From positions 224,001 to 288,000 of the forward strand of contig JBCCHT010000002.1 of the NCBI GenBank assembly GCA_039028615.1: a DNA stretch of 64,000 bases. Direction: 5' to 3'. The stretch's first letter is position 1. Every line of letters begins with the position of its first letter. The notes beneath the pieces were generated by a model, which was not told where the DNA came from, ran no database searches, and saw only the letters and a list, made by a program, of their open reading frames with translations. A program made the translations under genes and the position numbers. This document shows positions 8,901-13,368 of the stretch, piece after piece. This stretch comes from Myxococcota bacterium. Lineage in GTDB: Bacteria > Myxococcota_A > Polyangia > Nannocystales > Nannocystaceae.

Positions 8901-9106
8901 TCGCCAAGGCCCCGGAATCACGAGATCGGGTGGGGTTTGCGCTCCTCGGTCGGCCTGTTGTTGGAGCCAAACCCGGGGTCCGCAGCCCCACCCCAAACCG
9001 CGCTCTAGTGCCCGAATACGGTCGAATTCAGCCAGGTCATTTTCGATCGAACCGATGTCTCACGCTGGTGAGACAGCCCCCCCGTAGGCTGATTTCGTAC
9101 CAAGTC

Positions 9107-9733
9107 ATGGAGGCTCACGAACTCGTCGATGTCGGTTTTCCTCTGCGGGGAGGCAAGCTCCCCACAGACCACGGATACCTACTCTTCTCCGCGCTGTGCG
9201 AGGCTCTCCCACGCCTCAGTCATGAACCCGGGTGGGCTCTCCACCTCATCGACGGCAAGCGCGAAGGCCCCCGTAAGATCCGATTGGGACCACGCTCGAT
9301 GGTGCGGCTGCGACTACCCGCCCGAGAGCTCGGCGAAGCACTCTCCTTGACTGGTCGCGACCTCGCTGTCGGCAGCGATCGTGTGCACCTGGGAATGGCA
9401 AAGGTCAAACCACTGGCCCCCGCCTCCCGACTCCGCTCCGCGGTCGTTACCACTCCCGGCTGCAACCGCTCGAGCTTTGAAGCCACGCTGCGGCGAGAAT
9501 TGGCCACCCTGCCCCTCGGGCAGGACCCATCCACCATCGAGCTCGAGGTGGGCGTAGAGCGCTTGCTTCGCGCAAGGGTTCGGACGGTGACCGGCTTCGA
9601 GGTCGTTCTTTCCAATCTCCGCCCCCACGCCTCGCTGTGCATCCAAGCAGAAGGACTCGGTGCTCGACGCCACATGGGCGCCGGTGTCTTTCTTCCTCTC
9701 AATGAGCCTCGATCCGTCCCTGATTCAGAATGA
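9107..9733 (+). CDS. cas6: Orphan CRISPR-associated endoribonuclease Cas6, type I-MYXAN (Cmx6)-like
   Basis: N-terminal VDVGFPLRG..LPTDHGYLLFSAL, central SMVRLRLP, C-terminal Gly-rich loop SLCIQAEGLGARRHMGAGVFLP. Confidence 0.85.
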   Translation: MEAHELVDVGFPLRGGKLPTDHGYLLFSALCEALPRLSHEPGWALHLIDGKREGPRKIRLGPRSMVRLRLPARELGEALSLTGRDLAVGSDRVHLGMAKVKPLAPASRLRSAVVTTPGCNRSSFEATLRRELATLPLGQDPSTIELEVGVERLLRARVRTVTGFEVVLSNLRPHASLCIQAEGLGARRHMGAGVFLPLNEPRSVPDSE

Positions 9734-9751
9734 CTATGGCGACTATTTCGT

Positions 9752-9923
9752 AGTGTCCGTGCTTCGTGTGCCGTGAGCGAGCTTCGTCGCATCTGTCGCG
9801 TTGCCGCCCCCGAATGGCCGTGAAGGTAGGAGAGGGTGACTCTTACCCTCACGGCAGCGACAACGAGACAACGTAGGTTGGTTAGCCGTGGCGAACCTCG
9901 ACTGCGTCGCATGAAGTACGACT
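9752..9923 (+). ncRNA. Candidate structured ncRNA (~172 nt rod-like hairpin; class unknown, possibly 6S-like)
   Basis: Nested pairings 9758-9770/9908-9920, 9778-9781/9897-9900, 9783-9790/9888-9895, 9794-9807/9857-9870, 9817-9823/9849-9855, 9825-9832/9840-9847. Several G-U pairs work only on the + strand. Terminator follows directly. Confidence 0.6.
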
Positions 9924-9960
9924 GGCCCGCTTCCCTTCGGGGAAGCGGGCCTCTTTATTT
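9924..9960 (+). terminator. Rho-independent terminator
   Basis: Perfect 12-bp stem ggcccgcttccc/gggaagcgggcc, UUCG loop, then tctttattt. Confidence 0.9.
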
Positions 9961-11971: not shown

Positions 11972-12940
11972 ATGACGCTCGATCTCGAGTTCGTCGCGAT
12001 CGGAGCCCGCACCCCGGTAGGCCTCACCGCGCAAACCAGTACGGCGGCCATCCGGGCGGGAGTCTCACGCCTCCGCGAGTTCTCGTTCATCGCGGCCAAC
12101 GGCAAGCCCGTGGTCTTGGGCACCGACCCCCTCCTCGACGATCGCATCGAAGGCCGCGACCGCATGCGGGTCATGCTCGAGTCGGCCCTCGACCAAGCCC
12201 TCGCGAAAATCGGACCGCACCTGGCCCAGGCCCGCACGAGCTGCGACGTCTTGCTCGCCCTCCCCGAGACCCGCCCCGGCTTCTCCGACCCCGAAGCGCA
12301 GTGGATGTGCCAGGTCGCGCAGGTCCGCCTCCACCAGCACGGCATCGCCTGCAACGCGCTGTTGGCCGGCCGCGGCCACGCGGGCGCGCTGGCAGCCGTC
12401 GAACAGGCCACCCGAAGGGCGGAGCAACGGCGGCAGGCGGGCGAGGACGCCGTATTCGTCATCGCGGGCGCCGACAGCTACCACGACGCGCGCACGCTGC
12501 TTTGGCTGGAGTCCGAGCAGCGGCTGGCCATGCCCACCGTTCGCAACGGGTTCACCCCCGGCGAAGCGGCGGGCGCCCTGGTCCTCACCACCAAGGCCAT
12601 TCGTCGATCGTTGGGCCTGCCGTGCCTGGCGTCGCTCGACGGGGTGGGGCTCGCCCGGGAGGCACTGCTGCGAGACAGCGATACCGGGTCCTTCGGCCAG
12701 GGCCTGAGCCACGCCGTCAGCCAGGCCGCCCATGCGCTCTCCACGCCGACTTGGGGGAGACGGAGGAGACCCAGGCCGATGCGTCGGCGCTGGAATCCGC
12801 GCTCAAGGGCAAGAAATTCGAGCCCCGCGACATCAGCATGTTGGGCGTGGTGCATTGTCAGTGCGGAGATGCCAAGGCCGCGGCGCGCTCGACGATGCAG
12901 CGGTCGGGCGACTTCACCGCGGCCGCGTCTGGATACCTGA
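11972..12940 (+). pseudogene. Truncated beta-ketoacyl-synthase-like (PRK06147-type) T6SS adaptor; similarity ends near 12740
   Basis: IGARTPVGL...AAIRAG...RGHAG...GADSY...FTPGEAAG...GQGLS. After ~aa 257 the sequence is Arg-rich and looks out of frame, and the usual C-terminal part is missing. Confidence 0.65.
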
Positions 12941-13368
12941 CTCCCGCGTATACCGACTACAAGAATGCCGCTGCCGTCGTCGCGAAGATCAAGACGCATG
13001 CAGCCAACGAAAAAGCGTTCAACAAAGCGCTCGACCTCGCAAGGACACGACGGGCTGCATTCGTAAAATTGCAAAAGGAAGCCCCGGGCACGGCGCCGCA
13101 GGTCAACGTCCCGGGAGCGTGCGCGGCCCCCAAAGCGATGCTCTTGTTGCTCGAAGACGGAGGCCAGCCGGGTGCACTCACCGAGCGCTGGTGCGGCAGC
13201 CCGACCATGGCCAACCCGGTCGAACATTTCGACGAAACGAGCGGCGTCCGTGTCCGCGTCACCGACCGGGTCTTCGAGTATGGGAATTCAGTGCCTCCCT
13301 GCTTGGCCTGTGATGCCCTGCTGCCTCTGCTGCTGTGTGACAAGGACAAGCCATGTCACAAGAAGTAG
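12751..13368 (+). CDS. Polymorphic-toxin-like C-terminal domain (deaminase-like Cys motifs), N-terminus missing
   Basis: MLGVVHCQCG, AAASG, PGACAAPK, LTERW, VPPCLAC. Overlaps the SMI1 gene. Start uncertain (TTG 12751 or ATG 12838). Confidence 0.55.
   Translation: MGETEETQADASALESALKGKKFEPRDISMLGVVHCQCGDAKAAARSTMQRSGDFTAAASGYLTPAYTDYKNAAAVVAKIKTHAANEKAFNKALDLARTRRAAFVKLQKEAPGTAPQVNVPGACAAPKAMLLLLEDGGQPGALTERWCGSPTMANPVEHFDETSGVRVRVTDRVFEYGNSVPPCLACDALLPLLLCDKDKPCHKK

Follow-up and report, generated by a model that had tools for sequence, protein, structure and literature searches.

What might a Cas6 protein do when no CRISPR system stands beside it? This question is raised by the 64-kb window analysed here (the window being the whole stretch of DNA), in which a cas6 gene is accompanied neither by another cas gene nor by array-like direct repeats, and is followed by an extensively paired, rod-like element and an intrinsic-terminator-like hairpin (Table 1). 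The window is part of a draft genome of 12.27 Mb in 94 contigs that is 96.66% complete (G000), and cas6 and the rod together take up ~0.9 kb. A preliminary description, made from the sequence alone, had placed the two between a diverging PP2C gene and a converging SnoaL gene, had taken them for a self-contained, CRISPR-independent unit, and had considered that Cas6 might process the RNA or that the RNA might be an antitoxin. The neighbours are confirmed, the SnoaL match being weak (E 0.001, under the curated cut-off), and the self-contained unit is supported, as the searches revealed no CRISPR locus lacking a cas6 of its own that the protein might serve. The results described below suggest that a part of CRISPR has been reused for a different, probably stress-induced, job.

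Table 1. Features of the cas6-rod locus (positions in the window)
Feature	Position	Strand	Remark
Palindrome GTCTCA-N6-TGAGAC, candidate operator	9057-9074	.	overlies would-be -35 position
-10-like hexamer TAGGCT, inferred promoter	9085-9090	+	10 nt past palindrome, 16 nt ahead of start codon
Stand-alone Cas6/Cmx6 gene, 208 aa	9107-9733	+	two curated profiles and predicted fold
Linker, stop codon to rod	9734-9754	+	
Rod-like structured element, candidate ncRNA	9755-9922	+	strand inferred from terminator
Rod outer stem P1	9755-9790/9888-9922		
Rod stem P2	9794-9807/9857-9870		
Rod C-rich bulge	9808-9816		
Rod stem P3	9817-9832/9840-9855		
Rod apical loop	9833-9839	+	ends in GGGUGA (9834-9839)
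Rod 3' side hairpin	9876-9887		
Intrinsic-terminator-like hairpin and T-rich tail	9924-9959	+	hairpin 9924-9951, 12 bp, TTCG loop

Family, fold and conservation of the lone Cas6

The protein is assigned to the Cmx6 type of Cas6 by TIGR02807 (cas6_cmx6; 146 bits against a cut-off of 98.85) and by PF09559 (E 1.3e-44; 152.9 bits against a cut-off of 26.7). Its AlphaFold2 model (mean pLDDT 90.5) shows the double ferredoxin-like (RAMP) fold; the Foldseek matches listed for it are Cas6-family chains, and the best of them is the Cas6 of a type I-B CAST (8FCU_B, TM 0.86). Profiles and predicted fold thus confirm what had been read from the DHGY motif and the Gly loop GLGARRHMGAGVF. The C-terminal Gly loop is invariant across our alignment (A1), and D21-H22-G23-Y24, R69, S176, Q180, R187 and R188 are kept in the lone Cas6.

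Orthologous DNA was compared at 10 distinct loci (L002, which is the window, L035, L036, L037, L040 and L018-L022), at 73-80% identity to the window protein and with six stretches that were found by two tools counted once. Titled records among them are from Myxococcota and include a Nannocystaceae genome and Paraliomyxa miuraensis (L037), a cultured carrier. Among 73 genomes of the family, the clade occurs in the window's genus only, where five of six genomes carry it; in the protein database, ~45 clusters lie at 70-92% identity. The PP2C gene upstream is mostly kept at the orthologous loci, and the genes downstream vary and stand in either orientation. The median dN/dS of the orthologous genes is 0.18 at a median dS of 0.78 (45 pairs, simple counting method), and comparison among these genes shows the lone Cas6 to be under purifying selection without CRISPR partners. 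Five arginines (R36, R73, R84, R130 and R172) never vary among the orthologues; CRISPR-linked proteins are mixed at these positions. Such clade-specific arginines would suit a new RNA-binding surface.

A quick tree of 91 rows, which has SH-aLRT support only and drew long-branch warnings, groups the lone proteins in a single branch (support 99). It consists of the orthologues (52 rows, support 99) and a sister clade (10 rows, support 97), and among its closest neighbours is a cas3-linked Cas6 (L012) whose operon is confirmed as type I-MYXAN. The sister clade (L038, L039) lies at 45-47% identity, and the two genomes concerned also harbour a rod-bearing cas6. Matches in mobile elements are sparse: annotated phages gave no match, plasmid matches are distant (at most 38% identity), and viral contigs gave one weak partial protein match.

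Search for a CRISPR system in the genome

The window gene is the sole cas gene found in G000. The absence of a further cas gene or array, claimed earlier for the 64 kb, extends to the whole draft genome: tblastn found no second cas6, a repeat-spacer scan found tandem-type repeats only and no array, and the ORFs of 18 homologue loci, searched against the genome, gave no cas match. Family searches for Cas1, DevR/Cas7, RAMP, Cas6e and Cas5d returned 0 matches each, the same searches being positive in 7, 2, 5, 1 and 5 of 14 control genomes, respectively. The components of type I-MYXAN (cas3, cas8, cas7, cas5 and an array) were thus found neither at the locus nor elsewhere in the draft.

In two further genomes of the genus (G001, G002), neither Cas1 nor DevR was found. 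Three genus genomes do have CRISPR systems. Those of G003 (type I-MYXAN) and G005 (type I-E, its Cas6e recognised by eye) bring their own cas6, and the third, G004, has a CRISPR system and lacks the lone cas6 clade. A full I-MYXAN cas operon occurs in a single carrier (L141, G003:C373), and this is also the genome whose orthologue has lost the inner arm of the rod; this coincidence is a single case and may be due to chance.

Replacement of the loop histidine

According to an excerpt of PMC3902920, TtCas6A has its catalytic histidine, His37, in the loop after helix alpha1, and the H37A mutant is ~17,000-fold slower. Position 38 of the lone Cas6 was matched to this residue by its place in the secondary structure, since no sequence alignment reached TtCas6A. 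A histidine occupies position 38 in 22 of 22 CRISPR-linked homologues (the label comes from a neighbouring gene read by eye and was confirmed by HMM for one); of 199 database homologues without known context, 178 have it as well. The position is Ser or Gly in all 47 orthologue rows, five of which duplicate a locus, and Ser38 in the window protein; it is Arg in 8/8 sister-clade proteins and Glu in 3/3 proteins of a DsrC-linked group (see below). His38 is our candidate for the catalytic residue of this family, which the lone clades would then have lost.

Because the loop histidine of the CRISPR-linked homologues is replaced by Ser or Gly in the orthologues, RNA binding by the lone Cas6 is likelier than cutting. 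The adjacent His39, found in 43 of the 47 rows (the remaining four have Tyr39), may take over catalysis, and H22 is kept in 46 of 47. In 8FCJ, a solved Cmx6-type Cas6, the loop histidine is kept and an Asn stands where the DHGY histidine (H22) would be. Excerpts of PMC3902920 and PMC5965381 describe Cas6 active sites as plastic, some active Cas6 having no histidine.

A conserved rod-like element behind cas6

Downstream of cas6, the preliminary description had placed a ~172-nt paired RNA that starts ~18 nt past the stop codon and runs up to a UUCG terminator. The paired rod and the TTCG hairpin stand; the length is corrected to 168 nt, of which 126 nt are paired, and the start to 21 nt past the stop. 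The fold z-score is -4.45 for the rod alone and -7.19 with the terminator included; one of 140 random 171-nt windows of the genome reaches z <= -4.

A rod of ~155-185 nt follows the stop codon in 9 of the 10 orthologous loci, and its base pairs covary, so that the co-occurrence that was to be looked for among homologues is borne out. The orthologous rods were located by position and folding, blastn having missed them, and their median pairwise identity is 53% (42-80%). They share an outer stem, a variable 3' side branch, an 8-bp P2, a C-rich 5' bulge, and a P3 of ~15-17 bp that carries a 7-8-nt loop ending in GGGUGA. The GGGTGA stands at the tip of 9/9 rods, with G-C, C-G or U-A as the closing pair; when it is forced to be unpaired, the fold energy stays the same in five rods and becomes at most 2.7 kcal/mol worse in four. 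The linker between the stop codon and the rod measures ~20-90 nt in the orthologues and is 56-76% pyrimidine (nine stretches).

RNAalifold predicts 15 pairs on the aligned rods, seven of them with changes on both sides. In a hand-drawn structure of 45 pairs, 19 change on both sides, against 11.4 +/- 2.4 in shuffled alignments (0 of 500 shuffles as high), and the covariation score is 0.285, whereas slid partners never exceed 0.110. Neither control takes kinship into account, and the sequences from which the structure was hand-drawn are the same related ones on which it was tested. The paired fraction in the alignment is 91.5% for P2, 77% for P3 and 64.5% for P1. Leave-one-out tests are more independent than the covariation controls. 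A sequence profile of the other eight rods ranks the window rod first genome-wide (E 6.3e-5, next 0.13), and eight of nine held-out rods score E < 1e-4, the exception being L021 (0.29). A covariance model built without the window rod (R2) gives it 49 bits, with the next match at 18.6, as the single match in G000; it finds nothing in G004, the genus genome without lone cas6, or in G003. The RNA model R1 detects cas6-adjacent copies only, with nine matches in 52 loci and in 4/61 genomes, all of them training sequences. A rod away from lone cas6 was not found among the 47 or 150 candidates that were scored per genome. By these comparisons the rod is shown to be a conserved structured element tied to the lone cas6, and it appears to travel with the gene, because the rods are kept although the downstream genes differ.

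The association is not strict. L036 keeps a short hairpin and the terminator and is missing the inner arm of the rod; since it is nested among rod-bearers in the tree, this absence is a loss. Its protein is intact, with all residues scored as invariant kept, and dN/dS between L002 and L036 is 0.13. Two sister-clade loci have no rod, yet their proteins are intact.

A terminator-related CCGCT(T/C)CC stem follows the stop codon in 7 of the 10 orthologous loci, including L036, with T-rich tails behind it. The + strand is assigned to the rod because the terminator lies on that strand in these seven loci; folding itself leaves the strand unsettled, with + the better in five of nine rods and with G-U outnumbering A-C in the core (13 to 10) but not in P1 (15 to 16).

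The rod does not fall into the RNA families that were compared with it. At the gathering score, Rfam has 0 matches in the window, where ARAGORN likewise returned nothing; the best Rfam match is the Pxr sRNA (RF01812), which is terminator-driven and has 22.1 bits against a gathering score of 80. 6S RNA (RF00013) gives no match at E <= 10 in the region, and the 6S RNA of G000 lies elsewhere (G000:C59:45788-45953, L013; 49.1 bits). The rod and its flanks have no likeness to the MYXAN repeats that were tested: 10 flanks aligned locally to the L031 MYXAN repeat score 7-10, against a shuffled mean of ~9, and those aligned to the Synechocystis 6714 repeat score 6-11, against shuffled maxima of 10-13, with L035 alone above the maximum of its own shuffles (by 1). 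For L141, the nearest relative linked to cas3, the contig did not contain the repeat. No conserved short hairpin or repeat-like handle was seen in the linker.

Other candidates were considered and set aside. A small peptide encoded in the rod, by a GGAG...GTG reading or by a frame ending at the loop TGA, is conserved in neither length nor sequence. Pairing between loop and bulge is perfect in L021 only (by eye). As a repeated element the terminator stem is uninformative, 15 strand-matches of the exact pattern being present in G000, two of which are its own hairpin. In viral contigs the rod pattern has two matches, neither above 12 bits with R1. For a retron msr-msd there is no adjacent reverse transcriptase; the sole one found is on C16 and has its own long upstream leader. 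That locus (G000:C16:159600-161000, L156) consists of a retron-like reverse transcriptase gene, the long structured leader, and then a WGR-domain gene. The best secondary blastn match of the rod is a 38-nt stretch at G000:C2:48120-48290 (E 0.014), which the held-out model misses; beside it stands what we take to be a cobalamin-riboswitch motif.

An upstream palindrome and its candidate regulon

Ahead of cas6 lies a conserved palindrome that the preliminary description does not mention. GTCTCA-N6-TGAGAC precedes the gene at 10 of 10 orthologous loci and 2 of 2 sister-clade loci, and at 0 of 34 more distant loci (up to 2 mismatches). In all 12 cas6 loci it is exactly 10 nt from a -10-like hexamer, which is TAGGCT in nine orthologues, TATCTT in L037, and CATAAT and TACGCT in the sister clade; a consensus promoter scanner did not call the TAGGCT hexamer. 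The palindrome as an RNA hairpin for Cas6 was considered and rejected: the arms are invariant, the spacer is fixed at 6 nt, and it lies upstream of the putative -10 and also before non-cas genes.

Exact copies number 2-6 in each of the six genus genomes (20 in total; reversed control 0), and 7 of 55 genomes outside the genus hold one and none more. In 6/6 genus genomes a copy stands ahead of a gene for a 172-178-aa all-helical protein of no known family (G000:C20:42075, in L014:8076-8654; L062, L064, L066, L068 and L069), at the same spacing and with T at hexamer position 6 in 6/6 sites. This protein has conserved His residues and a model pLDDT of 90.9, and it gave no Pfam, Atlas or Foldseek match; its gene often stands before a DUF255 thioredoxin-domain gene. 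In two genomes (G000:C34:1974, L015; and L070) the palindrome precedes a tail-sheath gene, which looks like the start of a contractile injection system operon. No DNA-repair genes were among the palindrome sites examined. In viral contigs the promoter pattern has 45 matches. At one locus (G002:C47; L081:6307 and 6351) two palindromes 44 nt apart precede a pair of genes that belong to no known family.

An HTH-WYL-WCX gene lies upstream of cas6 in the three genomes where the two share a contig, at 10 kb in G000 and at 5 and 8 kb in G003 and G005. Its orthologues (E <= 1e-30) are present in six of six genus genomes and in 0 of 55 others; G000 has five WYL matches in total. The link is suggestive only, because any genus-specific gene would show the same pattern. 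The palindrome is missing from two I-MYXAN loci in which a WYL gene precedes cas6, and from L141.

The likeness is to DriD of Caulobacter, which an excerpt of PMC13004042 describes as a homodimeric WYL activator that senses ssDNA; the palindrome it binds covers the -35 position and keeps a constant spacing to the -10. The lone-cas6 promoter resembles the DriD promoter in that the palindrome lies over the -35 position, at fixed spacing to the -10, with no clear -35. The sites themselves differ, ATACGAC-N7-GTCGTAT for DriD and GTCTCA-N6-TGAGAC for the candidate operator here.

Proposed mechanism and alternatives

The reading to which we incline, tentatively, is that of an inducible unit in which Cas6 would bind and not cut, the rod would be its cis-encoded ligand or decoy, and further targets would lie elsewhere. 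cas6 and the rod would form one small transcription unit, a remnant of the gene that led a type I-MYXAN cas operon, retained for a new job. A WYL-type dimeric activator would bind the palindrome and switch the unit on in DNA damage or infection, and transcription would stop at the terminator, the rod forming the 3' portion of the transcript. The protein, after losing the loop histidine and acquiring its conserved arginines, would bind RNA without cutting it. It would bind the inner arm of the rod, with its GGGUGA loop and C-rich bulge, and this arm would serve as an internal decoy or feedback ligand, keeping hold of the protein and determining how long the transcript lasts. The main targets of the protein would be other RNA hairpins of the cell, and for this reason the protein could survive the loss of the rod. 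As all carriers among the 73 family genomes are in one genus, the co-occurrence of the rod, and likewise that of the WYL gene, may be plain linkage and descent.

The persistence of protein constraint without a rod, in L036 and at the two sister-clade loci, would also fit a rod that is real and independent of the protein: a small RNA or stability element that comes from the 3' UTR, has only the promoter in common with cas6, and is set free by RNases of the host. The locus has a pyrimidine-rich linker and a C-rich bulge, which would suit host processing and base-pairing. This explanation is unlikely on the whole: no copy was found away from the lone cas6 among the 47 or 150 candidates scored per genome, and a paired 168-nt rod with a fixed loop and a fixed helix length appears more like a protein ligand than like a pairing RNA. 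Marginally more doubtful is a Cas6 that is still an endoribonuclease, by way of His39 or His22, and cuts its own transcript so that the rod is released as a mature small RNA. The near-constant H22 and H39, the intact Gly loop, and the plasticity of Cas6 active sites, some of them active without histidine (excerpts of PMC3902920 and PMC5965381), speak for it; against it, none of the three CRISPR-independent groups sampled has kept His38, Tyr39 stands in 4/47 rows, and the linker offers no conserved hairpin or handle. The earlier proposal that Cas6 processes the RNA is thus unsupported so far, the loop histidine being replaced and the rod and flanks being unlike the MYXAN repeats tested.

A type III-like toxin-antitoxin pair, with Cas6 as a toxic RNase restrained by the rod, recalls AbiF and AbiFr in that a nuclease-fold gene is joined to a cis-encoded structured RNA (PMC12737573, in part). 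It has little probability, and the suggestion of an antitoxin RNA is weakened, as the L036 gene is intact after the loss of the inner arm, the sister clade is rod-less with intact proteins, the likely catalytic histidine is replaced, and the unit occupies a stable chromosomal site with no annotated-phage match and plasmid matches of at most 38% identity. Very improbable is a 6S-like mimic of DNA or a promoter, a DNA hairpin, or an RNA transcribed from the opposite strand. In its size and its long duplex arms the rod is reminiscent of 6S RNA, and folding leaves the strand undecided; against these readings stand the lack of a 6S match in the region at E <= 10, the genome's own 6S RNA elsewhere, and the T-rich tails behind the + strand terminator. 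Least probable of all is an ordinary Cas6 that serves a CRISPR locus in trans. G000 is a draft of 94 contigs in which arrays may be unassembled, and three genus genomes have CRISPR; however, no cas genes or arrays were found in G000, nor Cas1 or DevR in G001 and G002, and service in trans is poorly supported because the CRISPR systems of the carriers G003 and G005 bring their own cas6 and that of G004 occurs without the lone cas6.

A wider form of the inducible unit is possible and, in our judgement, rather unlikely. The CRISPR-derived Cas6 would have become the protein part of a new ribonucleoprotein whose RNA, of 170 nt, is not a repeat RNA, and the WYL activator would switch it on together with the helical protein and, in some genomes, the contractile injection system, in a stress or anti-phage response without guide RNA or Cascade.

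Relation to known systems

Two known kinds of arrangement meet at this locus, the reuse of a CRISPR part and the pairing of a protein with a cis RNA. The closest relative is the Cas6/Cmx6 of type I-MYXAN (I-B; TIGR02807, PF09559; 8FCJ/8FCU), with which the lone protein shares the sequence family, the fold (TM 0.86), the DHGY motif and the Gly loop. In two cyanobacterial type I-MYXAN loci examined, the cas genes begin with cas6, upstream of which stands a WYL gene. Unlike type I-MYXAN, the lone locus has no cas3, cas8, cas7, cas5, cas1 or array, its loop histidine is replaced, and its cas6 precedes a 168-nt rod that is unrelated to the repeats tested.

Racr reportedly is a small repeat-derived RNA of the same group as CreA and the mini-arrays. 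RNAs of this group are derived from repeats and act via Cascade, whereas the rod has no similarity to repeats and no Cascade to work with. In an excerpt of PMC10120712, CreA/CreTA and cr-like mini-arrays are described as a small RNA beside cas6 in type I-B loci. AbiF-AbiFr is alike in joining a nuclease-fold protein to a cis-encoded structured RNA, as an excerpt of PMC12737573 presents it, and in this it resembles type III toxin-antitoxin systems; AbiF has the HEPN fold, in contrast to the RAMP fold of the lone Cas6, whose loss of the RNA is tolerated and which gives no sign of mobility.

A second lone Cmx6-type Cas6, of the same Pfam family, is linked to DsrC in sulfur-oxidising betaproteobacteria (L050, L056, L057). 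It too is CRISPR-independent and lacks His38. It differs from the window clade in forming a separate branch of the tree, in having dsrC directly after it, and in having neither rod nor palindrome. The loss of the same histidine in the window clade and in the DsrC-linked Cas6 suggests that this route was taken more than once.

The CRISPR-reuse cases covered in part of a review (PMC8730458) retain Cascade, a guide RNA, or an RNA that derives from repeats. A selected lone Cas6 beside a non-repeat structured RNA would be a different route of reuse, from processing enzyme to RNA-binding regulator. In the main texts of the open-licence literature searched, including portions of PMC11096372, PMC13712802, PMC10952691 and PMC12102369, no description was found of a lone Cas6 with a non-repeat RNA. 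With the rod comes an RNA family that Rfam does not contain, and the palindrome points to a candidate regulon; the observations come from one genus.

Elsewhere in the window, at 11972-13368, a long + strand ORF seems to shift frame near 12900, ahead of a gene at 13353; it is possibly a broken gene or an assembly error.
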